Below, piece after piece: positions 23,506-44,571 of a stretch of 64,000 nucleotides of DNA (its first letter is position 1; each line of letters begins with the position of its first letter). The DNA is from Candidatus Omnitrophota bacterium (lineage in GTDB: Bacteria; Omnitrophota; Gorgyraeia; Zapsychrales; Zapsychraceae): contig JAGQKV010000002.1 in the NCBI GenBank assembly GCA_020429915.1, positions 61-64,060 on the forward strand. The letters run 5' to 3'. The notes beneath the pieces were generated by a model. It saw nothing but the letters and a program-made list of their open reading frames with translations. It was not told the DNA's origin and made no database searches. A program made the position numbers and the translations under genes.

Positions 23506-23884
23506 GGGTGACTCCGTCCGTGTTTTTCAGATAATCGATGAGTTTACTCAGGACGACCTGGGCTTCGGTGTTCAGTTCGTCGAATTCAAGGCGGGTTTCG
23601 TAGATAAGGTCTTTGGCCTTTTCGTTGCAGCCACGGACAATGCCCTGCAGGACGGTTGCATTGGTCAGAAAAGGCGTATTCAGCTCCACGCCCATACGGG
23701 TGTTGAGCTCAAACGGCTGGGCGGTGACGAAGCACATCCCCCCCTCGCTGATATTCTTCAGTTGGGTGAGCTCCATCCGGTTTTCCGGCGTACGCAGATC
23801 AAAATACCTCAGCAGGAAATGCTTGCGAAAGCGCTTGTGACGTCGGCGTTCATGGTAATCGTCTCGTTCTCTTCTGGGAAGCAT
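23498..23884 (-). CDS. PilZ-domain protein
   Basis: RRHKRF...DISEGG pattern (RxxxR ... D/NxSxxG); 128 aa; AAAGGAG RBS; first gene of the thr operon. Confidence 0.6.
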   Translation of the reverse strand: MLPRRERDDYHERRRHKRFRKHFLLRYFDLRTPENRMELTQLKNISEGGMCFVTAQPFELNTRMGVELNTPFLTNATVLQGIVRGCNEKAKDLIYETRLEFDELNTEAQVVLSKLIDYLKNTDGVTHD

Positions 23885-23969
23885 AGCGGAGTGCTCCTTT
23901 GATTGGGTTAGCGGAACGGATCGGTGCTGACTCTCAAGCCGTTCCCCTATGAGTTGCTATCAGATAAAA

Positions 23970-24043
23970 TCGGAGCGGTGAGATTCGAACTCACGACCCC
24001 AAGTCCCCCAGACTTGTACGCTAACCAGCTGCGCTACGCCCCG
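23970..24043 (-). tRNA. tRNA-Pro (anticodon GGG)
   Basis: Minus strand reads CGGGGCGTAGCGCAGCTGGTTAGCGTACAAGTCTGGGGGACTTGGGGTCGTGAGTTCGAATCTCACCGCTCCGA. Acceptor, D, anticodon (loop CTGGGGG) and T arms (GTTCGAATC) all pair. Confidence 0.85.
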
Positions 24044-24060
24044 ATAAAGTATTTCAAAGA

Positions 24061-24095
24061 GGACCGGCCGCTATTGCGGCCTTCCCTAATATTTA
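24061..24095 (-). terminator. Candidate terminator hairpin downstream of the giant gene
   Basis: GGCCGC-TATT-GCGGCC stem-loop followed on the minus strand by a moderately T-rich tract. It lies 20 nt upstream of tRNA-Pro, so it could instead be a processing structure. Confidence 0.3.
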
Positions 24096-24196: not shown

Positions 24197-27100
24197 TTAG
24201 AGCACGCTGGCTAGGGATTGGATGAGTGACGCGCGGGCGTCGGATTCCGGTGATGTGCGGCGGGACAAACGGGCCGTGCCGGCCGGGTCCTGCTGGACGG
24301 AGCGGGTATCCCCGTCGTCATTATCTTCTAAGCCTAACAGAGGTATAAGGTTAGGCAGCGGTGTGATGTTGATGATCACAGGCTGTACGCCGCGGATCTG
24401 GAGCGGATTCACAGGCATGGCGGTGCCTTCCGGGGTGATGAACTCAAAGGCATCCCCGGTGATTTGCAGATTCATGTTTCGAGTGTCAAAGTCGATCCCC
24501 CCGGGTTCTTCGGCTGTGAGCGCTTGGTCGAGCGGAATGACACTGATGCCTGTAGCGGCCAGTTCATCCCACTTTAGATCACCCGCAATCGGATCTGGCG
24601 ACTCAACGTCCACACGGACACTGCCGTTGTGGCGCACAGTTGTGGCAACGTCTTCATCTGTGATGAGATGATGCAAATAGAACGGAACCATATCTTCAAG
24701 TAACTTACGCGCTTCATCTGCGGTCATGGCCTGATCTTTCTTGACGGCGGAGATCTCCACCCGATCGAGCGGGGCGAAGCGCACCCGGGCGATAAAGTCA
24801 CCGTCCCGCTGGTAAAGTCGCGTGGCCTCGGCGATATTCTCTTCAGTAATCCAGTCCAGCGCGCCTACATCGGCCCCGCCTTCGATCATCTTGCCCCCAA
24901 TGAGCGTAAGGACCTTGCTGCGCAGGCGGGTCTTCAGAGGAGTGACAGCGGCGTCCGGCCGGGACGTGGCGGTCATGGCCTGGTCATCCCTGTCGCGATC
25001 GCGATTACGGAAGTTTTGCCAGCGGCGGAACATGCGGTACCCCACCAAACCGGCCAGCGCGGCCGATCCCGCCACCAGCAGGATTCTCTCCGGGTCCCGC
25101 AGGATCTCATCGAGCACGGCCATGTCCGGGGTGGCGTATGACCTGCTGTCGCGGACGACCGAGGGTTCGGCCTGACGTTCGGCGGCGAGGATGGCGCCGT
25201 CCACGATGTAACCGTTGGCGTCGAACGTGACGGTTTCCTCACCGATCGGTACCGACAGATTGCTTTCGGTAGCCACCTGGATGGCCGCGATATTGCGCAT
25301 GATGTGGTCCGCCATGAAGAATTTATCCTTCTTGAAGCGCGCGACAATGGCGTCACGCTTGATCAAGTCTTCGCCGTCGGTGGCGGCATATATCTCGGCC
25401 TTGCGTTGCCCCAAGGCCTTGGCTAGCCGGACCACGGCTTCGGTGGGGGTCATGTCGTATTTCTCGGATAATTCCATGACCATGATGTTATTGCGCCGCG
25501 CGATCTGGGCAATTTCGTCGTAGAGTTCGATTTTGATTTGGTCCAGCGGATCAAGGTACTCGTAATGTTCGCCGATCTTGATGTCGGGGTGATTACTGGA
25601 GGTGATCAAGCCGTAGCCTTGTTGCTCGACGGCATAGTTATCCCAGGACAGCCGCCGGCGCAGGGAAGCAACGGTGTAACCCAGGTCGTCACCGCGATGG
25701 AACAAACGCCCGTTGAGCGGATCGACGTTCGCGCCGATGGTAATTTCTTCGATGTCGGAGGCAACCACGATACCGTTGTGGATGATCACCTGACCGGCCT
25801 CAACGCTATCTTTGTCGGTCACCAGATTTACGACTTCCGTGACTTCGGTGTTGGTCTCCGTCGGGATGACATCGCCGTCGGCGCTGCGTAACGTGATGGT
25901 GCGCAATTCACGGACGGTCAGCTGATGCTTGAGCATCGCCTCTTTGGTGGATCCTTTGACCCCGCCGAAGTTCACGCTCATCCCGCTGACCGCCAGGATG
26001 CCGGCTTCTTTGAGCTCCTGTTCCACGCCGATGAAGGCGTTATTGGACCCTTCGATGATGATAATATCTTCCATCTCCGGTTCGTCCGCGTCCGCCTTGA
26101 GGAGCGACACGCCGGACCAGCCGCGTTCCTCCAAACGGTCCAACGCGTTTCCGAGTGTCAGCGAATAACTGGACCGTGCCGGATCACTGGTCGAATCCAG
26201 CAGATCGCGAATCTTTCGACCGATAATGAGCTCGTCATCGCCTTCATATTCCGCTAAAAAGGCGTTCAGTTCCTCTATCATCTGCTCGGTCACACGGCCT
26301 TCCAGGTTGGCATTTTCCAGGGCGCGGCGGACTGAGACAGGACGCTGCTGGAGGGGCTTTTTGATAAATCCGCCCATCGCCGCCGGAACCAGGAGGTTGA
26401 TGTCGACGGCTTCCGTGTCCAGAATCTGCGCGCCTTTCAGGTGCTGCACTCCCTCCTGTTCGGGCATCCACTGCAGGACATTGCGTTCTCCCGGAGAGAT
26501 GTTGTTAAGGTCTTGCAGTTCCGCTATGGTGAATCCTTCCGGTTTATAAACCACGCCGTTAATGTCTGATATGGCGACAACTCTGATGCCTCCCCGCACC
26601 ATCTTCAGGGCGATCGATCCGCCTACATCCCCGGCACCGACAACGGCGGCGCGCTGCGTCGCGGGATGGATTCCCTTATACTCGAGAATCGTTTTGATAC
26701 TGTGCCACGTCGAATCTCCGGTGACCGCCAGTTCGACGTGGGAGATGGCGCCCACTTTGGCGGATCCGCCGGTCACGGCGCTGCCGATGATCTTGACGAT
26801 TTCATCCTTGAGCTTACGGTTGAAGACGCGCTCGACGACCACACTGCCGTTTTCCTTGCCCTTGGGCAGTTCCAGCAACAGGCGTTTGCGCATGAAGCCG
26901 ATGAGACTGTCGTCAAGGAATTTGCGGCCTGTATCGCGCTCGATTTCGGCCAACGCGCGGCCGTAACTTGACAAGGTCAAGTTGAAGATATCGACGCCGT
27001 GCGCGTGCATGGTACGCACTTCATTCATCAAGTGCATGGTATAGCGGCGGACGATACCCGCGATAATCGTTTCCTGGTTGTCGGAGGACATGCCTACGTC

Positions 27101-30100
27101 CGGCCCCCCGTCATAGACTTCCATGAGGCCGACGTCCACCATGGCCCGCGCCCAGGCGCGCAGCAAATCGTCCTTCAGTGACGTTGCGTCCTGATTCACC
27201 CCGAAGTACGTCTTGGCGCCGGCATAACCGATACCGGCCAGGACGTTCTTGGAATATTGTGAAACCGAGAGGTTGTTCAAATCTTCATACGCGCCTTTCA
27301 TGATATCGTGCGCCACTTCGTCGATATTTCGCTTTTGCGGATCGTTCGCACGGGCCACCGGCTCGGCGTAACGGATGCCCCCCTTGGTGTGATCGGCTTC
27401 GCTGAGATCGACGAGCTGGGTAATCGCGTAGAAACGGTCGGGCAGATAGATGAAGACGATTTCCTTTTTGTTTTCAAAACCGGTTAGCGGGACCCCCTTA
27501 AAACGGATGGCGATCGCCTCGCGGCTGCCGCCGCTGGTTTCTTCCCGCTTCTCCGGTTCGACCACATCAGCGCTGGTGGCGGTGATATTCTTGACGGCGC
27601 GTTCGTACAGGATGGTCAACCACTGCGTCTCCGATCCCGCGAGCAGTTCCTCCAGGGCCTCTTCTTCGCCTTGCGGATTGTAGAGGTAACGGATCATGGC
27701 GGCGGCGATCTGCGGATGCGCCACGAGCTCCTCGATGGCGGCGATGCCGTCGAAGTATTCTCCCCGGTTATGCTTCACTTCGTAGTGCGAGAGTATTTCC
27801 AGGAACGTAGCGGCGCCCAGGAGTATATCCCGGCGGCGCGGTTCCACGTCGGCCAGGACCTGATCGAGTCCGGCACGGTTGGTTTTCTGATCGCGTTGAC
27901 TGTTGAGGTAACGCAGCGCCTCGGGACGTGTCTTGCGCTTTTGCGTATCGGCAGCGCCCAGCACCTGTTCCTCAATAGATGCCCCGGTTGCGACGGGAGT
28001 CGTCATGGCCGCGTCACTGGTTTTGAGTCGTTTGTCGAGTCCGATAAAGTTTTGAGCCTGTAAAGCGCGGCTCTCCTGTTCACGCAGACTGGCCTCTGCC
28101 ATACGGGCAGTTTTCAGGCTGGAGTCGAAGGACCCGGACAGCGCCTCACGCATGCGCACCGCGGCCAAAACGTCGTCGGAATCGGTTGCCGTCCTTTGTT
28201 CCAAGCGTCCCTCGGCGTTAAACACGTAGGTGTCCTTGCCTACCTTGATGGACAAGTCGCTGGCGGAAACCAGACGTTTGATGGCGATCTTGCGGGCGAC
28301 GTTCAGCGGGAAGAAGAATCCGTCTGTCTCGAATTTATCCACAATCCGTTGAATAGCTTCTTCGACCCGTTCGTCGTCCGAAGTGTCCAGTTCGCGTTTC
28401 TTGGCGGCGATCATCTTGGTAACCTTGCGAACGGCCTGTGACGGCATCATCTTCAGCTCCAACTTCTCTGCGTCGGCGCCATTGCGGGCCAATTCCATGA
28501 CCATCGTGTTCATGCGTTTGGCGATCCCCTTGATATCCTGGTACGCGGTGACACGGATTTCCTGGACCGGATCAATAAACACGGCTGAGTTGCCCTGCCT
28601 GAGGTCGGGGTGATTGCTGGCGATGATTTTCCCCTGGCTGTCGAGTTTCACCACGAAGTTGTCCCAAATCAGGGTCTTCACCTGATCGCGATGACGGTAA
28701 GGTAGTTGAATGCCTTGACTCGTCAGGCGCCCCTCGAACAAATCCAGGTTTGTCCCGGCGAGGATATCGGCGACCGTGGAGTGTATGACGCGGCCGTCCT
28801 GCATGACAATTTCCCCGAGGACTTCACTGCCCGTGTAATTGGTGACCGTGAAGCGATCATTGACGCGAATGGCCGGGCTGGTGACCACATCGGTCCCTTC
28901 CGAACGAACGATGATCCGTTGCAGCTGTTCGGTGGTGAACCGATGTTTAATGTAGTCCTCCAAATAAGAGCCGTAGGCCCCGCCGAATCCGATGCTGGTG
29001 GCGCTGAACGCCAGGATTCCCTTGCGATGCAGTGTCCGTTCGTAACCGTTGATCGAGTTGAATCCGCCTTCGATATAGATCAGCGGATCGCGGTCCGGAT
29101 CGTCATCCAAGCTGCGCAGCCGGTCGATGGCGCCTTCATCCAGCTTATGTCCCGGTGCCATCGAAATCAGGATGTCCAGGTCGATCATGTCTTTGTCGCC
29201 CAGCGACCCCAAGGGAAGGTGGCGGACGCCTGTGCTTTCCGCCGGCATCCATTTCAGGACGTTTCTTTCGTTCAGGGCGATATTGTCCAGCCGTTGCAAG
29301 TCCCGGACGCTGAAGCCTTCCTTTTTATAGACCGTTCCGTTGATGTCTTCGATCGCCACAACCTGGTACCCCATGCGGGTGAGCATGAGCGCCAGCGATC
29401 CGCCGGTCGTGGCCCCGCGGATACCGATCTTGCGGCTGCGCAAATCGCGGTCCGGCAGGTATTCGTCGATCGCCTCGATGCTCATGGCCGCACTGAATGC
29501 TGTCAGCGACCATTCCTTCAGCGCGTTGAACTCGGTGTCGGTCAGACGTCCCGTGGCCGCCGATCCGATCGTCCGCGCGATCTCCGACTCGAGTCGCGAA
29601 TTGAAGAGTTTGACCAGCGACGTCCCTCCGTTTTGCTGACCCAGATGCATGGAGGCGACCACCCGTTGCCGTAACGAATCCATCAGCGGGTCATGCAGGA
29701 AACGCCTCGGTGTTTCGGCGCCGTCCTCGAGTTCAGCCAGCAACATCCCGTACTGCGATGTGGACTTGATTTTGGACAGGTCCTCTCCGATGGACGGAAT
29801 GGTTTTCATCAGTTCCAATTCATTCCGCAGGTGATCCCGATAACGGGTGCCGATCGCCTGGGCCAGCGTATCTTGATCCTTGGCCGTCATACCGGATTCG
29901 GTCCCGATCACATAACGGGAGGCCACTCCGGCATCCACGTAAGATCTCGCCAGTGATTTGAGCAGGACGGTTTTGATATTCTTTGAGTCCGGGAAGACCG
30001 ACATTACCGTTTTGGCCCCGGAGAACGGTGTTTGGGTAATGGTGTTGCGGGCGAACTTCGAACGGGAAATCAGGTCAACCTCGGCAAAGGTGTTTTGGAA

Positions 30101-33100
30101 ATGATCGTAGGCGACCTGGTCTTCCGGTATCAGCCGTCCTCTTTCATCCCGGCGCTTGAGGACCTTGTAACGGATGCCGCCCTGTGCCAGGGATCCGGTC
30201 CCGTTCGGCCGGTCAACAATTTGTGTGAGGGCATAGAAGTATCCGGGACGGTACGAGAAGACGTAGTCCACCACCCGCGGGTCGTCGGTCAGGGCGCGGC
30301 CGCTGATGACCAGGGTCACGGGATCATAATCCTTGCGCATGGCCGTGTAGATATTGGAAGATTTAACATGACGGACCGCGTTGTTAAAGACTTTGTTCAG
30401 CCAGGCCGTACCGGAATGTTCGATCATCTCCTGGACGTTTTCCGCAGAGGTCTCCCCGGCGAAGTAACGGTCGAAGGCGGCCACGATCTCAGGATTATCC
30501 GCCAACTCCTGGCGGGCGGCGATGCCGTCGAATTCAAAATCATCCGCGGCAGCGGCGTAAAGTTCCAGGAATTGAGTCGCCGCCAACAGGGCGTCTTTAA
30601 CCGCGGGGCTGATCTGTTCATCCGGGATGGCATTGAGACCCGAGCGGTAGTTCCGCTGGCGACGGATGTCGGACAGGAACACCTTTTCCGGCTGGCTCAA
30701 TTCGCGGCTGGCGCGGATCATGTCCGGGATATCCAAATCCGCCGCGGCAAACTCTTCTCTTAAGTATTCATGAGTATATTCGGTGGCGGCCTCCTGATCC
30801 GCGGTTTGCCGGCCGATCCGCGAGATGAGTTCGTGGGTCAGTAGTAATCGCCGCAGCTTGTCGACTTTGTCGCTGAAAAAGTACGGGTGAAGTATCACTA
30901 CTTTCTTCCCGACGCTCGAATGGGCCGCGAACGGATTTCCGTTTTCGGCCACGGGCAGCTTGTAGACGATGTCGTCTCTGTTTTGAGTGGTGGTGTCGGT
31001 CGTGATGACGATACGGAAGTCCCGCAACCGTTCGAGTACGACCGGATCGGTTTCGGGGCGTTTCAGGAGGCGCTCGATTTCGTCAATGAGGACCCCCGCG
31101 TATTCCGCATAGCGACCGTTATCGTCCGTATCAATCTGGACTTCCCCGTCGATGATCTGGACCCGCATTTCGACGGGCGACTCGAGTTTCAAAACCTGTT
31201 CGGTTAAGGGCACCGTTAAGTCGGCGAACGTGGCCATATCGCTGTGGTTGTCGATCCGGCCGAGGACAGCGCTGTCCTGTGCGACCGGCAGGCCCCCGCT
31301 AAGGGCGGCCTTGCGCAGCGGCACTTTTCCTTTTTCCAGAGCGTCAAGATATTCCACGGCGCGCGTCAGGGTTTCGTCGATATGGATCATTAATTCCGTT
31401 AAGCGGTCCGCATCCGCGGGCAGTAATCCCCGTAGCAAAAAGGCGCGGTCCTGGATCTGGTGATAGTCAACGACCAGGTCTTCGACGGTGCGTTGGGCGG
31501 CCTGCGGAGCATACGGTCCGAACTTGAAGGCGTCGAGAAAACGCTGATTCACGAAGCTGTACAAAGTCTGGGCCTCGCGCCAATTCGCCGGTTCTCCCTG
31601 GTTTGCCGCGGCAATGGCGGTCCAGTGTTCCAGGTCCTGTTGTTTGACCTGGATCATCCGGCGCAGTTCTTCGGCCGGCGCTGTGGACACCCAGCGGATC
31701 ATTTCCAAGGTGGCGTCGGCCCCGTCCTTCAGGCTTTTCAGGCGCTGGATCAGGGTTTGCGGGACTTCGTTGCCAACGGCGATCCGTCGGTTGATGTCAC
31801 CCGAAATTTCCGCCAGCTGCCGGTCAAAGTCGATTTCAAATTTCCGGAGGGCCGACTCCCGGACCTCCTGCGCCCGGGCATTCGAAAAGAAATCCAGGGG
31901 ATCGTACATCAGGAAGTAAATCACAGCGCCCAGGCCCGTCAGGCCCAGACCGAGGCGGAACACGTCGCGCCGGTTCAGCATGGCCATATCCTTGGAGACC
32001 GAATAGTCGGTGAAGGTGATCTCGCGGATCACCTCCGCATCAAAATAGCCGGCTCCCGTAAAGATGGCGGACGGTTGCAGATCATCGTCCACCCGTTCGA
32101 AAATTGTTCGTACGGGATTTTGCGGATCGTCCCGGGTCACGATCTCCAGCGGAGTTCCCCGGTTGATCAGTCGGCCGTCCGGGCGGGTGCCGCGCTGGAA
32201 ATTGACAAAGTCGGCCAGCGACGGAAAGCGCATCTTGACGGCAATGACCATACCGTTGACCGTGACGTATTCCCTGACGTACGGCGTGTACAGGAAGTTG
32301 AACCGGATCTCGGCGAGAGCGGCGGCGATCTCTTCGGTGTCCATGTCCGTACTCGGACCGACGCGTTCGGCAAAGAGACGCCAGTCTATTGAGGAACTGA
32401 TGATATGAAACAGGCTGCGCATCAGACCGATCGGATAGTCCAGGGTGTATCCGTCCGGAGAGGCGTTGAGTGAGAGTACGACGTCCCTGGTCAGGGACTC
32501 CGGCAGCATGGCCACAAAGGTATGTTCGGTCTCAAAGATATCGCGGGTAATCGCCGCGGGATCGTAGGGCTGCCGGTGACGTGTTAATGTTTGGCGCAAG
32601 GCGTTTGAGATTTGAGCCCGGATGCGTTGGTCCAGCTGCATGTCGTCGGCCAGGACCTCCCAGCGGATAACAGCTTGTTCGATACTCAGGGCCTCGCCCA
32701 GGGCCGTGGCGACGACCTCTTCCTCGACCCCCAGACGTTCGGCGATGGTGTCCACCGCATCAATGAGCACGGCTGCGTCGGCCTCCACATAGGGTAACGT
32801 GAAGAGTTCGGCCACGTTCTGATCGAGGTAGCCCAGTGTCTTCCCGGTTGCGTCTTCGGAGACAATGGCAACGATCCGTCCGGCAAAATCCGTTTCGTCC
32901 GCGAAAAACCACGTCAGTAATTTATCGCTGACAGCGGCCCGGTCGCTCAGGTCCGTCCGTTCGGGAAAGAAGCGGCTTAAATATTCCAGGACGCGCTGGG
33001 AATCGGTAACCGTTGTCGGCTGGAGTTCTTCCAGTGGAACCGGCGTGTTTTGGGCCAGTGCCGTTTCGATTTGTTCGCGTAGCCGGCGTAAACGCATGCG

Positions 33101-36100
33101 GTGCGCGCGGTCCGGTCCGTCGGCAAGCAGGGCTGCGTCATCGGTATAACGGGATAGATACGCCAGATTGTCGCCTTGCAGGATGAGCCGTAGCGCGGAA
33201 AACTCGTCTACGATGTAGCGGACCAGCAGATCGGCTGTTGTGTGGCGCCGCAGATACAGCTGCTCGAGCAACTGGCCGATGGGACTCGACCGCAAGGCGC
33301 GCGCCTCGGGTGCGTCCGGCAACTCATCGATATCATTCAGCAATGGTAACGCGTTGAGCAACGGCGCCAAAAGTTGATAAAATTCACGCGCCTCGTCACG
33401 GGATAATTCGACATGATACTCCTGCGGGTCGTCCCGCAGAATCCCGATTACATCGTCAATATTGGTCCCGTCGAATTGTAGCAATGCCCTGGCCAAACGG
33501 CGTTGGTCGTTGTTAAACAGAAGATAGCGGATCCGGTTTTCCAGTGATTCGCGTGCCCGGCGGATCACCACGTCCTGCATTCCCTGCATGAATTCTCCTT
33601 GCGGGCTCATTCCGATCAGGTCGCGGTATTGCTGCAGTGCCAGACCGACTTTCCGGACAGCCAGCACATCGAGCGGATGGCCGTAGATCAGGTTCGAGAG
33701 GATTGCGTCTCTGACGATAGCCAGGCTCGGCTCGCTGAGCTTCAGCCGGGGATCATTCAATCCCCGTGCCCATGCTAAATTCTCGAGGAATTTTTCAACA
33801 TCCGGGATTTCCCTTTGCTCCATCCAGGCCTGAAGATCATCGTCTTTGGCCAACAGGGCGGTGTCCGCCTGGACGCGGATATCAGCATTGTCCAGGCTGG
33901 TAGTAAGAGTGCGGCTTAAGGAAGCCAGCACGGCCCTGTCCGCCGCGGATCCGGCAAGCAATTCGCGGGGCAGGTCCGTGGAAATGGTCGCCAGCCATGT
34001 CTCGAGCATCCCGCGGGCGCGCCGCACATAGGCGCGCAGTTCTTTTTCACCGGTTGCCTCCGCAGGGACTTCCAGATACATTCCGGATATGACCTTATCG
34101 TCGACCAGCCACAGGTAAGGCGCCTCGGCCCGCGGCAGGATTGTTGATTCTGACAGGCGGAACAACGGCGCCAGGGCGAACTGGTCGGCCAGGTAGCGCT
34201 GCACCTGCCGGGTCAGGCCGATCTGCCGTCGGTCGATGACTTCGGGCCCGACCGACCACAGCCGGATAGCCGAGGTTTCGATCTCTTCGCCTTGATTGTC
34301 CATGAACACGCCCTTCTCAACCACAGCGTCGATTCCTTCATTATCAATACGGCTGAGGGTTTCGTTCATGGATTGAATGCCGAACAAGAGCCGGATGCGG
34401 TCCGTCGCCGACAGCATGGCCGCGTCATTGCCTCCGTCGAATTCGGGTTCGTCCAACGGATTCAGCTCGGGCGCGCCGGCCGGTTTCCAGGTGATGGATA
34501 CCCGGTTCGCCAAGGTAGAGATGCTGACCTCGCCGGGTTGATTGGTCGGGTTCGCCCGTTTCAGTTTTCCTTCGACAAAGGCCAACAGGCCTTCGGGCGT
34601 GCCGGCTGTATCCCAGCGCACCAGCGGCGCGTGGTTCAGGAGGACCAGGACCGGGAGTTTTTCCTCGTATTGCTGATTATAGGTTTCAGCGTAGGTCATC
34701 GCGGCGGTCAGGGCGGCTTGCAACCGGTGTTGTTCAATTACGATCATCGCTTCATCCCGCCGTAGCTCGACGCGACTGTCGTCGGCGATCTGGGTTTGAC
34801 GATAGGCACGGCGCGGGACCGCCTTACCGTTGACCAGAACGACGGTCCGTTCGATATCCCGGCGTCCGACGCGCAGCAATCCCTCCACCGAGATTCCCGG
34901 CTCGACGTAATACGGTCTTTGATTGCCCTTTTCGTTAGTGATATTCAAGCGGTAGCGGGATTGGTGCTGGGCATCTTCCTTGATATTCCAGACGATTCCG
35001 TACAATTCATCCACGACGTCCTGACCGGCCACGGCCTCCGCTGGCAGGCGGATCAGGATCGCTCGCGCCTCTTTGATGCGACGGGCGGCCCGGATGAGTC
35101 CGGGTTCGGGATTGTCTACGGTAAAATAGTCGTCCTCGAGATCGTTCAGCAGTTGCAGAGCGGCCTCAAATTCCTCGTCATTGATGGCCTGGGTGATTTC
35201 CTCGCTGCGATCGATAATGTCCTGCCGGCGGAATTCAGCGAACAGGCTGGCGGCGCTTTCTTTAAGGTTGGTGGCGATCCGTTCGATATCCGTCAGACGG
35301 TCGTTGAGCCGCGTGATGATCCGTTGAAGATGCAGCTCGGCCCGTTTAAACGCGTCCTGGGCGATCAGCTCGATGACCGGAGTGAAATCGATGGCCGCGG
35401 TCACCTTGGATTCCACGAAACCGCGTTCGGTCCACTTTTGCAACTCCTCCAGTTTTTCGGTAATCACCACGCGGTCGCGCCGGGACAACGTAACGGCCCG
35501 GCCGCGTTCCTGACGCTGCGAAGCGCTCTTGAGTTTCTTGGCGTAGTAATCCAGATCGGTTTTGTTTTTCAGAATGACCATATACTCGGCCAGCTCGGAG
35601 GCGATTTTTCGAATCTGGCCTTCAAAGGCCTTGCGCCGGCTGCGGTAGCGGACATCGTCCCATACCATCAGCTTCGGCGATTGAATGCGCTCGGTCAACT
35701 CTGTGACACGGTCCTTGATGTTATCCTTGAGTTCGCCCTTGGCCAGGGCTTCTCCTTCCGGCAGAGTCGTGATGATATCACGCAAAGCACGCAGATCTGT
35801 CTCAATATCTTTGTAGGTCTCCAAAGTTTTAAAGTATCGCAGCCGGTAGATTCCCAGCAGGAAATTGATCTGTTTTATAGCCGCGTCGATCTCGCCTTTA
35901 TTGGCCAGACGGCGGATCCGGTCGAGACGGGTGTGAACGTTCACCGGACGTTTTTGCCGTACGGTGACCCGCGGTTCGTCTTCTCCGCTTTTGGGTTTTT
36001 CGATATCGATGTCAAAGGTACCCAACCGGTATGTCCGGACCCGGTTGCCGACCCAATCCTGAGTCTCGATCACGCGCCGGAATTTGCGGCCGCGCAGGCG

Positions 36101-39100
36101 CTGGATGCGGTATTCCAATTCAATCTCGAGGGCGCTGGCGCTGTTGATGGCCCCCTCCAGGGCGTTCATGGCCGGCGTCGGATGGCGGATGCCGTCGCGG
36201 GATTGGCCGGTTTGCAGCAGTCCGGCCACCATCAGCTGTGTCTTGATCATCAGCCGGTTGGTGCGGATCGCCAGCAGGTTGAGCCGCGCCAGCGCTTCGC
36301 GGTCTCCGAGTGCATCGGCGCGGCGTATCTGCGCGGAAATGCGGCGTCGGTCGCGCTTCAGGTCCTTGAGCGCATCGCTGTAAAAATCATATCCTTTCTT
36401 AAGGACGATATTCACCGGCATTTCGTTGAAGAGTTGACGCATATCCAGGATCAGCTGCTGCTCGCGGCGCTCGATTACCGCCAGATCGTCGTCGGTCTCA
36501 GCGTTACGGCGCAGGGCCATGATGGCCTCGGACTCACCGTAAAGCAGACCCAGCCGTTGGCGGATTTCGATGGAGGCCCGGCGTTCATTGTTGCGTTCGT
36601 TCTCTTCCCGTTCGGGTACGAGCCGGTACTCCCGCGGTTTGATCTCCAGGCGGTCGGCGGCGTCCGACAGCATCGCGAGGTCTGTGCTGATCGGCAACCC
36701 TTCAAAGAAATTGGCATGCACATCAATGTAGACGCCGTTCTCGATCACATACATCAGCACCTGTCCGCGCTTTGTCTCCAGATGCTTTGCTACCGATTGG
36801 GTGGCCACAGGCAAGATCGTATCGAGCGGCTGGTCTGCCGGATAACGCCCGACGATGTCGCCGTTTATGTAGACAAGCAATTCACGTTCGTTTTCCCTGG
36901 CGAGTTGATGGGCATCCCGCATGGACGTGCGAAAATCGGTATCCGAGAGCAACAGGGCCTCGTCGACCTGTCCGCGGTTCATTCCGGCCGGAACGACCAC
37001 TGTTGCCTCCGCACCTTCGGTCAATCCGCTGGCGGAAAGTTGGGCCGGCAGGTCCGCGGAGGTATTCAGATAGATGCTGCTGCCGGCCGAATAGATCGTC
37101 AACTTGCCGCGGCGTGAGGCCAGCTCCTTTTGCAGTTGGGTTTTGAGGCCGTCCAGAACGGCGTCCAGGTTTATGCCCGGATCGATGCTGCGCAGCCGTT
37201 CGCCGTCGAGAAACAGATACACTTTGGTCGCCTGCTTTTGCGCGGAGGCAAAGGTCTCCCGCAGGATTGACTCAAAGGCGGCCTCGGGAAATTCAATGGA
37301 TTGTCCGGAAGATAATCCCGGCAAGCGGTGGATGATGATCGGGACGAGACCGGGGTCAGAAGTGACTGAGGTCGCCGCTTCCACGCTGAAGCTGAAATGA
37401 TCGTGCAGGTCCGCGGAGGTGTCCAGATAGATGCTGCCTCCCGCGCGGAACATGGTCAGGTTGCCGGTCCGCCGGCCGAGTTTGGCCTGGGCCACCTCAA
37501 GAGCTTCACTGCGGGCCTGGTCCGGATCGGTCGAATTCGAAAACTGTTTGATGACGTCTCTGTCGAGATAAACGAAGACATCCTGACCGCGTTGGAGAGC
37601 ATCTGCGAAGGCATCCATCAGCATTGCCCCGAAGGCGTCTTTCGGAACGCGGATCGTCCGGTCGATGATCAGGGCGTTGGGGGCCGGGGTGATGCGTATG
37701 ATCTTCCCGTCGAAGCCGACATTGATGTTGCCGACCAGGGCCTCGGCCTTGTCGATGTGCTCCTCGCCGATGAGTCCATGCGCGCTTTGCGGCAGTTCGG
37801 CGGCGATGCGATCCCGCAGCAAGCGGCGATAGGTCGCGACCAGTCGCGACATTTTATGCGCCAGTGCGATCCGTTGCGGGTTCGGCCGGGTTATGCCCGG
37901 TTCCAGAGTCGCGGGATCCCATTCGTCGTAGCCGGTGGCCGTGCGGATAAAGTATTTTCCGGAGCGCCGGGACAGCGGAGCCAACTCTTCCTCGCTTAAC
38001 TCGTCAAGTGGCCGGTCGATTTCCGTGGGGTGCTGGGCGAGCTGCTGTTCGGTCTGGTCGATGGTCTGTGCGTAAAGTCCGAGCAGGATCGCGCGGTGCA
38101 AATGATGTAAGGCTTGGGTGCCGGGGTCGCTGCTCAATCGCAGTAAACGTTTTTCCAGGACATTCAGCTGTCCGGCGACAATCGGAATCGCGTCTTCTCC
38201 GCTGGCCAATAGCCGTCTGATGGCGTTTTGGCGCATACGCGGACTGGCCCACGACAGGCGGTTGAGCAGATGTTCTTCCATCGTGGAAGCGAAAACGGCT
38301 TGGTCGTCCCCTTCATTCTGGCGAAGCCCGGCATAAGTTTGCACCGTGTGATAATTCCTGGTCAATGCCGCCGTACGGAGTCTTTCCGTCATGCCTTCGG
38401 TGATAGACTCAGCGGAGAGCTGAGCCATGTCGACACCGCCCGAGAAATAACGGCGCGGGATGGGGGTGCCGGTATCCGGATCCTGGTCTTCGCGGATGTA
38501 GTCAAAAACTCCCTTTTGCAAGGCCGCCAGGTATTGGTTATAGATCGACTCTTTGACATCCCGGTCTTCAATCTCAATGCCGTCGACCTTGTTGCGGTTG
38601 ACGTATAACCGCCCGAGAATGCTGTCGCGCAGATTTTTTTTGTACCAGGCCGCTAATATCAGAGAATGGAATATTTGCCGCAGCGGGGCAAAGTTGCGGC
38701 CGGAATTAATTTCACGTTCGATTTCGGGAATGAGGATTTCGCGTACGACATCATCCGAGATCCCGGTCAGGACTTCGTCATCCGTCGTCCCGGAGTTCAA
38801 CGCCGCGTGATGGCGCAGGGCCAGATAGTCCTCTTCCAGCATGACCTTCAGATGACTGTCGGCAATAAAGACATTCGGTCCGTTCACATAGATCTGCGCG
38901 CGCTCCGGAATGATCCAGATCTTGTTGAAGGTATTCATCGGGATCTCGGTTGTCCCGAAGCGCTGCAGCGCCTTTTGTTGCACGCGATCCCAGAAGCGGC
39001 GGCCGAGCTCGTCTTCCGGATACATCATCGACGCGCTCAACTGTTTAAGCAGATAGTCCTGGGCGAGCATGTCCCGGCCCATGGCCGTGTGGCTGAGCGG

Positions 39101-39475
39101 GTCGGCAATAATCCTGTCTTCTTCATAAGGTGACAGGTTGACCCACAGCTCGTTTTCCGGCACGGTGAGCGCGGCGAAAAAGTAATGGATGAGTTTTTGA
39201 GAGGCGGCGGTCAGATCGTCGCCGGCGGCCTGGTCGTCGCCGGTATCGATGAGGAAATTGATTTGCAGGGGATCTTCGGGGGAGAGTTGAATGCCGGTGA
39301 CAATCGGCGGCGTGAAGGTCTCGCTGGTCTCGACGCGCGCCCCGGGTACCGGCATCAGCGCAGTCTGCGCGTAAACAGCCTGCGGTGCGACGAGGCTGAC
39401 GGTAAAGCTGCAGATGACCAGCCAAACGACCGTGTTCCGGCCAATGTCGCTCCATTTGTGCAGACCCATAATCAT
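24197..39475 (-). CDS. Giant (~5,090 aa) multidomain protein with signal peptide, tandem repeats, two TM helices and two tandem Glu/Leu/Phe/Val-type dehydrogenase (large-GDH-like) modules
   Basis: Uninterrupted 15.4 kb ORF (track 24197..39607). Preferred start is ATG 39475 (MIMGLHKW...) with GGAAGGGGG 9 nt upstream, giving signal peptide MIMGLHKWSDIGRNTVVWLVICSFTVSLVAPQAVYA|QT. Module 2 (~25900..27810) carries TKGGIRY, GYAGAK, GGPDVGM and Rossmann AVVGAGDVGGSIALKMVRGGIRVVAISDINGVVY..., then EGSNNAF...GILAVSGMSVNFGGVKGS, matching ELFV_dehydrog motifs. Module 1 (~28950..30600) is a diverged copy (QGGIRY, SGAK, GATTGGSLALML...VVAIEDINGTVY). TM helices at ~31900..31960 and ~25050..25100. Confidence 0.85.
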   Translation of the reverse strand: MIMGLHKWSDIGRNTVVWLVICSFTVSLVAPQAVYAQTALMPVPGARVETSETFTPPIVTGIQLSPEDPLQINFLIDTGDDQAAGDDLTAASQKLIHYFFAALTVPENELWVNLSPYEEDRIIADPLSHTAMGRDMLAQDYLLKQLSASMMYPEDELGRRFWDRVQQKALQRFGTTEIPMNTFNKIWIIPERAQIYVNGPNVFIADSHLKVMLEEDYLALRHHAALNSGTTDDEVLTGISDDVVREILIPEIEREINSGRNFAPLRQIFHSLILAAWYKKNLRDSILGRLYVNRNKVDGIEIEDRDVKESIYNQYLAALQKGVFDYIREDQDPDTGTPIPRRYFSGGVDMAQLSAESITEGMTERLRTAALTRNYHTVQTYAGLRQNEGDDQAVFASTMEEHLLNRLSWASPRMRQNAIRRLLASGEDAIPIVAGQLNVLEKRLLRLSSDPGTQALHHLHRAILLGLYAQTIDQTEQQLAQHPTEIDRPLDELSEEELAPLSRRSGKYFIRTATGYDEWDPATLEPGITRPNPQRIALAHKMSRLVATYRRLLRDRIAAELPQSAHGLIGEEHIDKAEALVGNINVGFDGKIIRITPAPNALIIDRTIRVPKDAFGAMLMDAFADALQRGQDVFVYLDRDVIKQFSNSTDPDQARSEALEVAQAKLGRRTGNLTMFRAGGSIYLDTSADLHDHFSFSVEAATSVTSDPGLVPIIIHRLPGLSSGQSIEFPEAAFESILRETFASAQKQATKVYLFLDGERLRSIDPGINLDAVLDGLKTQLQKELASRRGKLTIYSAGSSIYLNTSADLPAQLSASGLTEGAEATVVVPAGMNRGQVDEALLLSDTDFRTSMRDAHQLARENERELLVYINGDIVGRYPADQPLDTILPVATQSVAKHLETKRGQVLMYVIENGVYIDVHANFFEGLPISTDLAMLSDAADRLEIKPREYRLVPEREENERNNERRASIEIRQRLGLLYGESEAIMALRRNAETDDDLAVIERREQQLILDMRQLFNEMPVNIVLKKGYDFYSDALKDLKRDRRRISAQIRRADALGDREALARLNLLAIRTNRLMIKTQLMVAGLLQTGQSRDGIRHPTPAMNALEGAINSASALEIELEYRIQRLRGRKFRRVIETQDWVGNRVRTYRLGTFDIDIEKPKSGEDEPRVTVRQKRPVNVHTRLDRIRRLANKGEIDAAIKQINFLLGIYRLRYFKTLETYKDIETDLRALRDIITTLPEGEALAKGELKDNIKDRVTELTERIQSPKLMVWDDVRYRSRRKAFEGQIRKIASELAEYMVILKNKTDLDYYAKKLKSASQRQERGRAVTLSRRDRVVITEKLEELQKWTERGFVESKVTAAIDFTPVIELIAQDAFKRAELHLQRIITRLNDRLTDIERIATNLKESAASLFAEFRRQDIIDRSEEITQAINDEEFEAALQLLNDLEDDYFTVDNPEPGLIRAARRIKEARAILIRLPAEAVAGQDVVDELYGIVWNIKEDAQHQSRYRLNITNEKGNQRPYYVEPGISVEGLLRVGRRDIERTVVLVNGKAVPRRAYRQTQIADDSRVELRRDEAMIVIEQHRLQAALTAAMTYAETYNQQYEEKLPVLVLLNHAPLVRWDTAGTPEGLLAFVEGKLKRANPTNQPGEVSISTLANRVSITWKPAGAPELNPLDEPEFDGGNDAAMLSATDRIRLLFGIQSMNETLSRIDNEGIDAVVEKGVFMDNQGEEIETSAIRLWSVGPEVIDRRQIGLTRQVQRYLADQFALAPLFRLSESTILPRAEAPYLWLVDDKVISGMYLEVPAEATGEKELRAYVRRARGMLETWLATISTDLPRELLAGSAADRAVLASLSRTLTTSLDNADIRVQADTALLAKDDDLQAWMEQREIPDVEKFLENLAWARGLNDPRLKLSEPSLAIVRDAILSNLIYGHPLDVLAVRKVGLALQQYRDLIGMSPQGEFMQGMQDVVIRRARESLENRIRYLLFNNDQRRLARALLQFDGTNIDDVIGILRDDPQEYHVELSRDEAREFYQLLAPLLNALPLLNDIDELPDAPEARALRSSPIGQLLEQLYLRRHTTADLLVRYIVDEFSALRLILQGDNLAYLSRYTDDAALLADGPDRAHRMRLRRLREQIETALAQNTPVPLEELQPTTVTDSQRVLEYLSRFFPERTDLSDRAAVSDKLLTWFFADETDFAGRIVAIVSEDATGKTLGYLDQNVAELFTLPYVEADAAVLIDAVDTIAERLGVEEEVVATALGEALSIEQAVIRWEVLADDMQLDQRIRAQISNALRQTLTRHRQPYDPAAITRDIFETEHTFVAMLPESLTRDVVLSLNASPDGYTLDYPIGLMRSLFHIISSSIDWRLFAERVGPSTDMDTEEIAAALAEIRFNFLYTPYVREYVTVNGMVIAVKMRFPSLADFVNFQRGTRPDGRLINRGTPLEIVTRDDPQNPVRTIFERVDDDLQPSAIFTGAGYFDAEVIREITFTDYSVSKDMAMLNRRDVFRLGLGLTGLGAVIYFLMYDPLDFFSNARAQEVRESALRKFEIDFDRQLAEISGDINRRIAVGNEVPQTLIQRLKSLKDGADATLEMIRWVSTAPAEELRRMIQVKQQDLEHWTAIAAANQGEPANWREAQTLYSFVNQRFLDAFKFGPYAPQAAQRTVEDLVVDYHQIQDRAFLLRGLLPADADRLTELMIHIDETLTRAVEYLDALEKGKVPLRKAALSGGLPVAQDSAVLGRIDNHSDMATFADLTVPLTEQVLKLESPVEMRVQIIDGEVQIDTDDNGRYAEYAGVLIDEIERLLKRPETDPVVLERLRDFRIVITTDTTTQNRDDIVYKLPVAENGNPFAAHSSVGKKVVILHPYFFSDKVDKLRRLLLTHELISRIGRQTADQEAATEYTHEYLREEFAAADLDIPDMIRASRELSQPEKVFLSDIRRQRNYRSGLNAIPDEQISPAVKDALLAATQFLELYAAAADDFEFDGIAARQELADNPEIVAAFDRYFAGETSAENVQEMIEHSGTAWLNKVFNNAVRHVKSSNIYTAMRKDYDPVTLVISGRALTDDPRVVDYVFSYRPGYFYALTQIVDRPNGTGSLAQGGIRYKVLKRRDERGRLIPEDQVAYDHFQNTFAEVDLISRSKFARNTITQTPFSGAKTVMSVFPDSKNIKTVLLKSLARSYVDAGVASRYVIGTESGMTAKDQDTLAQAIGTRYRDHLRNELELMKTIPSIGEDLSKIKSTSQYGMLLAELEDGAETPRRFLHDPLMDSLRQRVVASMHLGQQNGGTSLVKLFNSRLESEIARTIGSAATGRLTDTEFNALKEWSLTAFSAAMSIEAIDEYLPDRDLRSRKIGIRGATTGGSLALMLTRMGYQVVAIEDINGTVYKKEGFSVRDLQRLDNIALNERNVLKWMPAESTGVRHLPLGSLGDKDMIDLDILISMAPGHKLDEGAIDRLRSLDDDPDRDPLIYIEGGFNSINGYERTLHRKGILAFSATSIGFGGAYGSYLEDYIKHRFTTEQLQRIIVRSEGTDVVTSPAIRVNDRFTVTNYTGSEVLGEIVMQDGRVIHSTVADILAGTNLDLFEGRLTSQGIQLPYRHRDQVKTLIWDNFVVKLDSQGKIIASNHPDLRQGNSAVFIDPVQEIRVTAYQDIKGIAKRMNTMVMELARNGADAEKLELKMMPSQAVRKVTKMIAAKKRELDTSDDERVEEAIQRIVDKFETDGFFFPLNVARKIAIKRLVSASDLSIKVGKDTYVFNAEGRLEQRTATDSDDVLAAVRMREALSGSFDSSLKTARMAEASLREQESRALQAQNFIGLDKRLKTSDAAMTTPVATGASIEEQVLGAADTQKRKTRPEALRYLNSQRDQKTNRAGLDQVLADVEPRRRDILLGAATFLEILSHYEVKHNRGEYFDGIAAIEELVAHPQIAAAMIRYLYNPQGEEEALEELLAGSETQWLTILYERAVKNITATSADVVEPEKREETSGGSREAIAIRFKGVPLTGFENKKEIVFIYLPDRFYAITQLVDLSEADHTKGGIRYAEPVARANDPQKRNIDEVAHDIMKGAYEDLNNLSVSQYSKNVLAGIGYAGAKTYFGVNQDATSLKDDLLRAWARAMVDVGLMEVYDGGPDVGMSSDNQETIIAGIVRRYTMHLMNEVRTMHAHGVDIFNLTLSSYGRALAEIERDTGRKFLDDSLIGFMRKRLLLELPKGKENGSVVVERVFNRKLKDEIVKIIGSAVTGGSAKVGAISHVELAVTGDSTWHSIKTILEYKGIHPATQRAAVVGAGDVGGSIALKMVRGGIRVVAISDINGVVYKPEGFTIAELQDLNNISPGERNVLQWMPEQEGVQHLKGAQILDTEAVDINLLVPAAMGGFIKKPLQQRPVSVRRALENANLEGRVTEQMIEELNAFLAEYEGDDELIIGRKIRDLLDSTSDPARSSYSLTLGNALDRLEERGWSGVSLLKADADEPEMEDIIIIEGSNNAFIGVEQELKEAGILAVSGMSVNFGGVKGSTKEAMLKHQLTVRELRTITLRSADGDVIPTETNTEVTEVVNLVTDKDSVEAGQVIIHNGIVVASDIEEITIGANVDPLNGRLFHRGDDLGYTVASLRRRLSWDNYAVEQQGYGLITSSNHPDIKIGEHYEYLDPLDQIKIELYDEIAQIARRNNIMVMELSEKYDMTPTEAVVRLAKALGQRKAEIYAATDGEDLIKRDAIVARFKKDKFFMADHIMRNIAAIQVATESNLSVPIGEETVTFDANGYIVDGAILAAERQAEPSVVRDSRSYATPDMAVLDEILRDPERILLVAGSAALAGLVGYRMFRRWQNFRNRDRDRDDQAMTATSRPDAAVTPLKTRLRSKVLTLIGGKMIEGGADVGALDWITEENIAEATRLYQRDGDFIARVRFAPLDRVEISAVKKDQAMTADEARKLLEDMVPFYLHHLITDEDVATTVRHNGSVRVDVESPDPIAGDLKWDELAATGISVIPLDQALTAEEPGGIDFDTRNMNLQITGDAFEFITPEGTAMPVNPLQIRGVQPVIINITPLPNLIPLLGLEDNDDGDTRSVQQDPAGTARLSRRTSPESDARASLIQSLASVL

Positions 39476-39720
39476 GTGCTCATTCCCCCTTCCGCAGTTG
39501 GTGTGCGGCAAGTCAAAGGCATAGACGGTATCATTAAGCGGTCCCGGACAGTAATCCGGACCGGAAAAAGAACAAAAAAAATCCCGCTTGGAAATAGACG
39601 GAATCACTAAAGTTGCTCAAATTGTGAGACGAGATTGGGGAATATGGATAGTGGGTGTTGCGTATATATAAGAATATATTAGTGTCACTAGTTTGTCAAA
39701 TATTTATACGGGATTCAACC

Positions 39721-43858: not shown

Positions 43859-43866
43859 GGCGGGGA

Positions 43867-44571
43867 TTACTTCCAGACGAAGACTTCGCGGCAATTCTGC
43901 CACATGTAGGCCGCGCCCCATTTGATGACCTGCAATTTGGCGACGCCTCCCTCCCGGGCCGGTTCGTCGCCGGGGATCTCGGCAATCTTCAAATTACGCT
44001 TGGCGGCCCGGATCGACAACAGCGGTTCCCAGCTGACCACGGTGCGAAAGAGTTTCTCTTCGAAGTCGTAGCTGTTGTCTTTGTCCAGGTCAAGTTCCTG
44101 GATGAGGTCCTTGCGGTAGATCCGGTAGATCACCATGGCATCATGATAGCGGTGTCCGTGCAGCAGGCTGATGCTGGTGGAAAAAAGCCAGTTGCCGAAG
44201 GCCGTCACGGGGGTGTCGTCGTAGCTCTTGGCCCCCTGCGCGTAACGCGACACGATGACCATGTCATACCCTTCTTTGTATTTGGCGATGGCCTCGGGAA
44301 TAAGTTCGGGGATGGAATTGCCGTCCGGACTGAAGGTGAGGATAACGTCGCCCTTCATATGCGGCAGGGCCTCCATGTACGCATGGCGCATCCCCATCTT
44401 CTTCTGGATAACCACGTCATACCCCTGCTCTTTCGCGTATTCAACCGTGCCGTCGGTGGACTGCCCGTCGACGACCAGGATCTGATCGACCCATTCGTTT
44501 TTGATCCGCGGCATGATTTCCTGCATGCCCTGGTACTCGTTGAGGGTAGGAACGACTAATGTGACTTTCAT
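43867..44571 (-). CDS. Family 2 glycosyltransferase (polyprenol-phosphate / dolichol-P mannosyltransferase-like)
   Basis: VVPTLNE...VVDGQSTDGT...DxD-type region, typical of small GT2 polyprenyl-phosphate glycosyltransferases. Confidence 0.8.
   Translation of the reverse strand: MKVTLVVPTLNEYQGMQEIMPRIKNEWVDQILVVDGQSTDGTVEYAKEQGYDVVIQKKMGMRHAYMEALPHMKGDVILTFSPDGNSIPELIPEAIAKYKEGYDMVIVSRYAQGAKSYDDTPVTAFGNWLFSTSISLLHGHRYHDAMVIYRIYRKDLIQELDLDKDNSYDFEEKLFRTVVSWEPLLSIRAAKRNLKIAEIPGDEPAREGGVAKLQVIKWGAAYMWQNCREVFVWK

Follow-up and report, generated by a model that had tools for sequence, protein, structure and literature searches.

Introduction

Bacteria of the phylum Omnitrophota are ultra-small, largely uncultivated and have been proposed to be predatory or parasitic. 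Giant multi-enzyme proteins that bear signal peptides have already been described for this phylum (10.1101/2023.11.21.568195; 10.64898/2026.06.07.730766). In West-Roberts et al. (2023), "Archaeovorins" are Omnitrophota giants of >30 kaa (thousand amino acids) whose glycolytic, PPDK and GT5 domains are predicted to be extracellular, and proteolytic processing of such giants is proposed, with the cleavage points given as unknown (10.1101/2023.11.21.568195). Nielsen and Lui (2026) divide Omnitrophota proteins of >=10 kaa into several classes, "multi-enzyme metabolic clusters" among them, and they report signal peptides and/or transmembrane (TM) helices for 94% of the long proteins of this phylum (10.64898/2026.06.07.730766). 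Seymour et al. state that giant open reading frames (ORFs) are common and poorly annotated. Where the enzymes of Omnitrophota giants with export signals act, and whether their chains are processed, is a recognised puzzle. Here we describe a tractable example of about 5 kaa, which is encoded on the minus strand of a 64,000-nucleotide stretch of contig JAGQKV010000002.1 from a Candidatus Omnitrophota bacterium (assembly GCA_020429915.1). The whole stretch is called the window, and the 5,092-amino-acid (aa) protein is called the giant.

The published proteins and the giant share their phylum and the presence of cytoplasmic-type enzymes in a long chain with a signal peptide and/or TM helices. The enzyme domains named there are PGI, PPDK, GT5, radical SAM, methyltransferases and HAD. 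Whereas the published giants measure 10,000 to >30,000 aa and carry many TM helices as well as SecA_DEAD or C39 domains, the giant has at most two TM candidates and no SecA_DEAD or C39 match. Term searches of these papers gave no mention of an ELFV (Glu/Leu/Phe/Val) dehydrogenase, a glutamate dehydrogenase (GDH) or a polyprotein, and the passages returned contain nothing like a head/tail frame or a DxAM junction. Giant proteins of this general kind are known; within the literature searched, the head/tail frame, the junction motif and the GDH pair seem not to have been described before.

For part of the enzymatic cargo of the giant, the hetero-hexameric GDH of Thermus thermophilus, with GdhA as regulatory and GdhB as catalytic subunit, may be the nearest analogy. 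The two Thermus subunits (3aoe) are separate cytoplasmic polypeptides of ~420 aa, whereas the pair in the giant is fused in one chain and is much more divergent. Canonical ELFV enzymes are soluble cytoplasmic oligomers; the modules of the giant instead lie in tandem inside a signal-peptide-bearing chain. They are 15-22% identical to ELFV dehydrogenases (small hexameric GDH/LeuDH) and to the 180-kDa M. smegmatis GDH (7a1d), and each also has a unit of six helices at its N-terminus, an inserted helical part, a subdomain rich in beta strands (model residues 680-793) and further helices at its C-terminus.

Polymorphic toxin systems (CdiA, Rhs; Zhang et al. 2012, PMC3482391) likewise join a constant trafficking part to variable cargo, and their border motifs (VENN, DPxGL), many paralogs per genome and cassette-like cargo resemble what is seen in the family of the giant. 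Unlike these toxins, the family is constant at both ends, carries its cargo internally, and holds metabolic enzymes of housekeeping type rather than nucleases or deaminases. Membership was considered and rejected: the C-terminus is a constant tail, and tRNA-Pro, PilZ and hom, rather than an immunity gene, lie downstream. The likeness is therefore treated here as an analogy.

We lean, with modest confidence, toward the reading that the giant is an exported, modular multi-enzyme protein of an Omnitrophota head/tail family, and that its cargo includes one active and one inactive GDH-like module.

The giant shares its two ends with a large Omnitrophota family

Residues of the giant are numbered from the Met at 39475 (aa 1). 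The coding sequence and the parts that form the family frame are as follows.

24197..39475, minus strand: coding sequence of the giant, 5,092 aa from ATG 39475, with stop codon 24197..24199
39368..39475, minus strand: Sec-type signal peptide, aa 1-36, predicted cleavage between VYA and QT, assigned by eye and hydropathy
38432..39355, minus strand: family head domain, aa 41-348, with WVNLSPYE, GRDMLAQDYLLKQ, FNKIWIIPE, LKVMLEEDY, PEIEREIN.G.NF..LRQ and PRRYFSGG
24338..24511, minus strand: family C-terminal tail, aa 4989-5046, PGGIDFDTRNMNL...GVQPVIINITPLPNLIPLLGL

Residues 1-36 look like a Sec/SPase I signal peptide, as had been proposed in a first-pass annotation made from the letters of the window alone. 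The N-terminus, MIMGLHKWSDIGRNTVVWLVICSFTVSLVAPQAVYA followed by QT, has K/R in its n-region, then a hydrophobic core of 15 aa and a VYA-Q site, and the family consensus at the cleavage region reads ...AQ(A/S) and then LNLPxPGT. A lipoprotein signal was rejected, since LVIC is no canonical lipobox and its Cys is not kept in the family.

Homologs were sought with sub-regions of the giant. A word-indexed search with aa 30-620 as query recovered 910 protein clusters, with E values from 1e-183 to ~1e-111 among the 120 matches listed. Nearly all of the matches listed are unnamed or labelled Omnitrophota, measure 350-1,030 aa and are ~50-60% identical over a ~320-aa domain; identities over the head reach from 50 to 69%. 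Their shared frame runs in the order signal peptide, head domain, variable middle, tail. Across the family, the head is marked by WVNLSPYE, GRDMLAQDYLLKQ, FNK[IV]WI[IV]P, LKVMLEEDY, PEIE.E[IV]N.G..F..LRQ and PR[KR]YFSGG, and the tail by the consensus GGIDFNP.NLNL...G..PVIINI.P...L.LLGL. The tail motif is present in 58 of the 133 proteins examined, many of the others being annotated as partial or located on short contigs, and every one of these 58 also has the head motif.

Hidden Markov models (HMMs) of the family match the giant at both ends (head E 9e-151, aa 41-348; tail E 1.7e-11, aa 4989-5046) and match nothing else in the window. These two matches show the giant to be an extreme-length member of a large Omnitrophota paralog family and not as an isolated architecture. 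This revises the first-pass annotation, which could place the architecture in no family and had wondered whether a well-annotated one with exactly this layout might exist; the family does exist, but it is uncurated. Neither head nor tail has a Pfam or NCBIfam model, searches of the head and the last 300 aa against these collections at E up to 10 returned only a chance VPg match, and the head has no PDB match.

Species genomes of GTDB hold at least 575 family loci. The top 79 loci listed lie in metagenome-assembled genomes (MAGs) labelled Omnitrophota/Omnitrophica, "uncultured Planctomycetales" (TPA bins), "Planctomycetales bacterium" (one case) or "bacterium", and some MAGs occur 5-6 times among them. 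According to precomputed Pfam annotations of the aa 30-620 search matches, the cargo families differ greatly and include PGK, PGI, DnaJ, Macro, DUF218, AAA_18, proline dehydrogenase (Pro_dh) and HAD, together with Radical_SAM, PPDK_N, nucleotidyltransferase, starch synthase, methyltransferases, LMW phosphatase and GNAT. In the giant, ~4,600 aa of cargo lie between head and tail and comprise a triplicated small domain, helical blocks and the GDH-like pair.

In an AlphaFold2 (AF2) model of a short family member (P0095, 640 aa; 119-sequence alignment), the predicted local distance difference test (pLDDT) score is ~90-97 for head residues 30-345 and 86-95 for tail residues 580-630, and the cargo is poorly modelled. 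The high pLDDT of the tail and its strict co-occurrence with the head suggest that the two may act together. Polar residues that never vary in the head comprise N, T, D, Y, K, Q, E and R; since no Cys, His or Ser is invariant, the head is more likely to be a binding or anchoring module than a hydrolase.

Four consecutive head/tail family genes were observed in another Omnitrophota MAG (GCA_029261055.1; L007:6592-22894). Their products measure 1,126, 964, 2,845 (with PRK/CYTH/DHH domains) and 1,870 aa, the last of which runs off the locus end. The family thus expands in tandem arrays and covers a wide size range.

Two GDH-like modules with unequal active sites

The dehydrogenase-like part of the cargo consists of two modules.

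28106..30697, minus strand: GDH-like module 1, aa 2927-3790, with LAQGGIRY, FARNT, GTESGM and GATTGG; degenerate active site
25106..27931, minus strand: GDH-like module 2, aa 3849-4790, with K4031 (HTKGGIRY), K4076 (SKNVL), K4088 (AGAK) and D4126 (GPDVG)

That the giant holds two duplicated modules with the ELFV dehydrogenase fold was recognised at first pass and is confirmed by several comparisons. The modules are 30-40% identical to each other, at ~860-940 aa each rather than the ~600 aa originally estimated. PF00208 (ELFV_dehydrog) matches the giant with E 1.1e-29 (104.3 bits against a cut-off of 23.4) in three stretches that cover both modules, and it also matches the homologous giants P0151 and P0152 described below. 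A marginal match of PF02812 (ELFV_dehydrog_N) falls in module 1 (E 7e-6, 26.1 bits against a cut-off of 25.3). PF05088 (Bac_GDH), which had been named with these two as a family to look for, gives no match in the giant at E up to 1, and NCBIfam returns only weak GDH equivalog matches, far under their cut-offs. A Foldseek search gives a GDH fold match (E 8e-11, probability 1.0) in which the substrate/dimerisation domain is also covered, and both domains of the GDH fold are thus present. The top structure, 7a1d, aligns over 494 residues, compared with ~360 for small GDHs, at a TM-score of only 0.39. By sequence, the modules are remote from ordinary GDHs (phmmer E ~1e-5 to 1e-8).

Among the 1.84 billion representative proteins, only 13 match the GDH-like module at E <1e-10. 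These measure 765-5,905 aa, save two of 234 and 260 aa, which are short or fragmentary. All three matches with a named source are labelled Omnitrophota or Omnitrophica, and two of the three are annotated by another fused enzyme (butyrate kinase and 6-phosphogluconolactonase). A check for homologous giants, recommended in the first-pass annotation, yielded three that bear GDH modules, all recovered by this exhaustive search of representative proteins: P0151 (4,821 aa), P0152 (3,302 aa) and P0153 (1,915 aa). All three have a signal peptide, the head, one or more GDH modules and the tail, and the head of the giant is 62-64% identical to those of P0151 and P0152. P0151 is recorded in NCBI as an "ARMT1-like domain-containing protein" of Omnitrophota. 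A further relative that carries the module, P0001, is 59% identical and was the only protein recovered by a profile search with the GDH-module alignment; pattern searches of genome and metagenome contigs with the module gave no confirmed relatives. The word-indexed homolog search returned nothing >1,031 aa and missed the giant's own cluster, and it is accordingly no evidence on the absence of giant homologs.

To compare active sites, all modules of four lineages were aligned with eleven GDH-like sequences of canonical type. Residues corresponding to K89, K113, K125 and D165 are kept in module 2; in C. symbiosum GDH numbering, these are the substrate Lys pair (K89/K113), the catalytic Lys and the catalytic Asp. 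These residues and the GxGxxG loop are conserved in P0151, P0152, P0153 and P0001. The dinucleotide loop of module 2 is GAGDVGG at aa 4280-4286, and an acidic residue after beta-2 (AISD) and a GGV..S segment are also present. Module 1 has Q/E and R at the two substrate-Lys positions, K at the catalytic-Lys position, E at the Asp position, and a degenerate glycine loop, GA-TTGG. The same split between a degenerate module 1 and an intact module 2 recurs in P0151 and P0152, so that in all three paired lineages module 1 has lost the two substrate lysines and GxGxxG, and the initial picture of two equivalent dehydrogenase modules does not hold. P0153 has a single GDH module, which is of module 2 type.

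Purifying selection on the two modules is strong. In a comparison with an ortholog that is 94% identical to the giant, module 1 has a ratio of nonsynonymous to synonymous substitution rates (dN/dS) of 0.042 and module 2 one of 0.056. The simplest reading of the residue pattern would be a pair made of one potentially active enzyme and a conserved non-catalytic partner.

Two further observations concern these modules. An insertion of ~80 aa (aa 4378-4458; 26102..26344, minus strand) lies in the NAD-binding domain of module 2 and is of low confidence in the model; it is lineage-specific, being absent from module 1, P0001 and P0151, and P0152 has a different insertion there. Eight other proteins (P0154, P0156, P0158, P0159, P0160, P0164, P0165 and P0192) carry the same divergent GDH-like module without the head and tail, and the sole one with a named source is labelled Omnitrophota. 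Because all eight of these headless carriers start with signal-peptide-like N-termini, the exported context of this GDH clade appears to be wider than the head/tail family.

A junction motif recurs at the borders of cargo modules

A short motif, counted as D-x-A-M-[LTSMIV] and with the extended consensus DxAML[SAG][DE][DE], occurs seven times in the giant.

36668..36682, minus strand: junction DLAML, aa 932
34742..34756, minus strand: junction DEAMI, aa 1574
34412..34426, minus strand: junction DAAML, aa 1684
31976..31990, minus strand: junction DMAML, aa 2496, directly before hydrophobic segment 1
28001..28015, minus strand: junction DAAMT, aa 3821, in the linker between modules 1 and 2
24971..24985, minus strand: junction DQAMT, aa 4831
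24722..24736, minus strand: junction DQAMT, aa 4914

Shuffled sequences lead one to expect 0.27 occurrences in the giant, with a maximum of 3 in 500 shuffles. Similar excesses over shuffles are found in P0151 (8 observed, 0.20 expected), in P0152 (5 observed, 0.19 expected) and in 52 complete family members (30 observed, 1.9 expected). Of the sites in the complete members, 15/30 lie within ~70 aa after the head and 11/30 within ~30 aa before the tail. The motifs delimit, at start and end, blocks that are conserved between giants, and they sit in low-confidence linkers (pLDDT <50) of both AF2 models. Despite its family architecture, P0153 has no strict D.AM motif, and the motif is absent from the eight inspected GDH-module proteins that have no head and tail. 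A role as a DNA-level recombination site was rejected, since the synonymous nucleotide positions of the motif vary. The motif thus appears to be a protein-level signal specific to the head/tail family, and it could serve for cleavage, for docking or as a structural cap.

The cargo outside the dehydrogenase modules includes the following blocks.

36635..37690, minus strand: three tandem repeats of ~115 aa each, aa 596-711, 715-834 and 837-947
34745..36685, minus strand: Arg/Glu/Leu-rich cargo block, aa 931-1577, bounded by the DLAML and DEAMI junctions
24506..24982, minus strand: two mini-modules of ~75-85 aa, aa 4832-4918 and 4919-4990, which end in DQAMT and DQALT

The three tandem repeats, estimated at ~110 aa each when first noticed, are detected by BLAST with E 1e-11 to 9e-18; an HMM of the repeats likewise matches exactly three copies. 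Because the homologs P0031 and P0151 hold a single copy each, the triplication appears to be lineage-specific and recent. The Arg/Glu/Leu-rich block is 56% identical to P0151 aa 639-1279. Over the 5,092 aa, Pfam and NCBIfam give nothing beyond the ELFV/GDH matches and a sub-threshold ThiS-like beta-grasp, and aa 931-1700 and 1685-2926 have no PDB sequence matches at E up to 1. This ThiS/MoaD-like stretch (aa 1518-1571; 34763..34924, minus strand; Pfam E 0.0014, NCBIfam E 0.0037) stops exactly at the DEAMI junction, and the same layout is seen in P0151, where it ends in ADQAM.

The region that precedes the tail evolves rapidly. Against the 94%-identical ortholog, dN/dS is 0.33 for aa 4791-4990, far above the rest of the protein, and the ortholog (L003, about 5600-5900) has an extra 66-aa mini-module that ends in DQAQT just before its tail. 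Because of this extra module and the fast pre-tail evolution, gain and loss of modules at junctions may well be ongoing.

Proposed export, topology and possible processing of the chain

If the reading that we lean toward is correct, the giant would be exported by Sec, and its head and tail would together serve as a constant anchoring or sorting unit. The cargo would work outside the cytoplasm, either in the periplasm or at the surface of the cell, or else on or inside a host cell. Module 2 would be a catalytic NAD(P)-dependent amino-acid dehydrogenase and module 1 a degenerate, non-catalytic partner that forms an intramolecular pseudo-dimer with it, and flexible linkers bearing D-x-A-M-[LT] would join the cargo modules. 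Several points weigh against this reading. Export of NAD(P)-dependent enzymes, and in paralogs of those that need ATP, S-adenosylmethionine or Fe-S, poses a biochemical difficulty, since these cofactors reside in the cytoplasm. Module 2 lacks two features of canonical GDHs, the GG that follows the catalytic Lys and the TGK motif, which makes its activity and substrate uncertain. The case for docking of the head to the tail comes from a single AF2 model, in which pLDDT is high for both. Secretion-system, protease and sortase-like neighbours were sought beside three family loci, and none is conserved. A final point concerns two hydrophobic segments that flank the GDH pair exactly and are, by hydropathy, the most hydrophobic stretches after the signal peptide; if they are true TM helices, they could place the GDH modules in the cytoplasm.

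31904..31963, minus strand: hydrophobic segment 1, candidate TM, aa 2505-2524, VFRLGLGLTGLGAVIYFLMY
25028..25084, minus strand: hydrophobic segment 2, candidate TM, aa 4798-4816, ILLVAGSAALAGLVGYRMF, then RRWQNFRNRDRDRDD

The first-pass annotation had called these segments TM helices and had derived from them a topology in which the N-terminal ~2,500 aa lie outside, the GDH pair lies in the cytoplasm, and the C-terminal domain lies outside. In such a bitopic-loop membrane protein, the GDH pair could reach NAD(P), and the outer C-terminal part would measure 275 aa. The segments do exist where they were described, and segment 2 is present in the 94%-identical ortholog; their TM status is a matter of interpretation, and we consider the topology doubtful. 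In its favour, cofactor availability suits a cytoplasmic GDH pair, an even number of spans leaves head and tail on one side, and a signal peptide together with TM helices is reported for 39% of Omnitrophota long proteins (10.64898/2026.06.07.730766). However, alignment shows neither segment at its position in P0151, P0153 or P0001 (59% identical), all of which hold the same modules, and the hydrophobic cores span only 16-17 residues. The charged flanks, +3 K/R on the N side of segment 1 (NRRD) and +6 on the C side of segment 2 (RMFRRWQNFRNR), would face outward, against the positive-inside rule. Complete family members, as tabulated, carry cytoplasmic-type enzymes and mostly have no hydrophobic window between signal peptide and tail. 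The proposed topology is therefore unsupported, both because homologous giants do without the segments and because the charges are reversed. It also seems unlikely to us that both GDH-like modules are non-catalytic structural or ligand-binding scaffolds, such as nucleotide or amino-acid sensors, in a surface or adhesion protein. The extracytoplasmic location predicted by the signal peptide, the clear degeneration of module 1, the two motifs missing from module 2 and the great divergence from canonical GDHs would all suit such scaffolds. Yet in four lineages module 2 has kept all four principal catalytic and substrate residues, an intact GxGxxG and the acidic residue that follows beta-2, and its low dN/dS reflects strong constraint.

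How the chain is handled after synthesis is a separate matter, and here a polyprotein model is compatible with the preferred reading of an exported multi-enzyme protein rather than exclusive of it. According to this model, the giant is a precursor that cleavage at its D-x-A-M-[LT] junctions, with a possible further cut behind the tail GG, divides into individual functional proteins, one of them a GDH pair of ordinary enzyme size. The 15- to 40-fold enrichment of the motif in disordered linkers at module borders, its conservation in protein but not in nucleotides, and the gain or loss of mini-modules between junctions of 94%-identical orthologs are all consistent with cleavage, which West-Roberts et al. 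also proposed for Omnitrophota giants without giving cleavage sites. Nevertheless, no protease domain is detected in the giant (Pfam, NCBIfam) or beside the three family loci, P0153 has the family architecture without a strict motif, and a structural cap or docking motif could explain the junctions instead. On balance we think such processing rather improbable. A broader proposal, which we offer as possible but speculative, is that the head, the GGIDF/PVIINI tail and the D-x-A-M-[LT] junctions constitute an undescribed, phylum-wide export and processing system for cassettes of cytoplasmic-type enzymes, the active/inactive GDH pair among them. Enzymes freed by cleavage at the junctions might then act on or in the cells of a host or prey, or in a metabolic space beyond the cytoplasm.

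Taken singly, the gene is less exceptional than it appeared at first, and the family frame that it exposes is a testable handle on Omnitrophota biology. The constant frame of signal peptide, head, junction motifs and tail is common to hundreds of smaller paralogs, and it provides what earlier studies were missing: candidate cleavage or junction sites, a head domain suited to expression and localisation, and a GDH cargo with an easy assay. Should the enzymes act in a host or beyond the cytoplasm, central metabolism would be externalised in an unusual way; should they stay inside, the reason for a signal peptide throughout the family would have to be rethought.

Integrity of the giant gene

The minus-strand ORF, noted at first pass as a single uninterrupted frame, is indeed unbroken from 24197 to 39607 and counts 5,136 codons from GTG 39607. 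ATG 39475, the start favoured from the outset, remains the best choice: a Shine-Dalgarno-like sequence precedes it, and the NCBI record of the giant (MCA9392677.1, a Candidatus Omnitrophica MAG) uses the same 5,092-aa start. Candidate expression signals around the gene are as follows.

39485..39493, minus strand: Shine-Dalgarno-like GGAAGGGGG, 9 nucleotides 5' of ATG 39475, read from the sequence
39671..39699, minus strand: promoter-like site TTGACA-17-TATTCT upstream of the gene, a consensus match only
24066..24081, minus strand: terminator-like GC hairpin and T-rich tract between the stop codon and tRNA-Pro, a consensus match only

Its extreme length and MAG origin are the sole grounds for suspecting an artefact, whether an assembly chimera, against which the first-pass annotation had cautioned, or a decaying pseudogene, and no evidence in support of either was found. 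Nineteen contigs from Logan and ENA (longest 763 kb) encode an identical 5,136-aa ORF product, and the 90% cluster of the giant also holds intact variants. The gene adjoins hom both in a MEGAHIT-style contig (k141_...) and in a scaffold of another ENA assembly, and the order giant-PilZ-hom-thrC is kept in two differently named assemblies. GC content is even over the whole gene. The reading frame is intact in L003, the fragment of the 94%-identical ortholog, against which dN/dS is 0.092 overall (dS ~0.3-0.35) and 0.086 in the tail. Because of the identical contigs, the conserved gene order, the intact ortholog and the low dN/dS, a chimera or pseudogene can be excluded for practical purposes, and we give an artefact almost no credence.

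Genomic neighbourhood

The neighbours of the giant gene are housekeeping genes. Downstream lie tRNA-Pro, PilZ, hom, thrC, coaB, apgM and lysC, and upstream lie a DUF1016 nuclease gene and gpsA. A search of the window with Rfam detected tRNAs only, which include the following.

23969..24044, minus strand: tRNA-Pro(GGG), directly 3' of the giant gene
44824..45466, minus strand: cluster of tRNA-Gly(TCC), tRNA-Tyr(GTA) and tRNA-Thr(TGT), ~5 kb upstream of the giant gene

Also upstream are a glycosyltransferase-like gene pair (GT87/DUF6798 and GT2; 42005..44571, minus strand) and a gene for a MORN-repeat protein (45723..46913, minus strand). These genes probably have cell-envelope functions, and no link between them and the giant gene was seen. 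On the downstream side, a small gene for a PilZ-domain protein (128 aa; 23498..23884, minus strand) lies between tRNA-Pro and hom and overlaps the start of hom; its position is the same in independent assemblies and in the related species.

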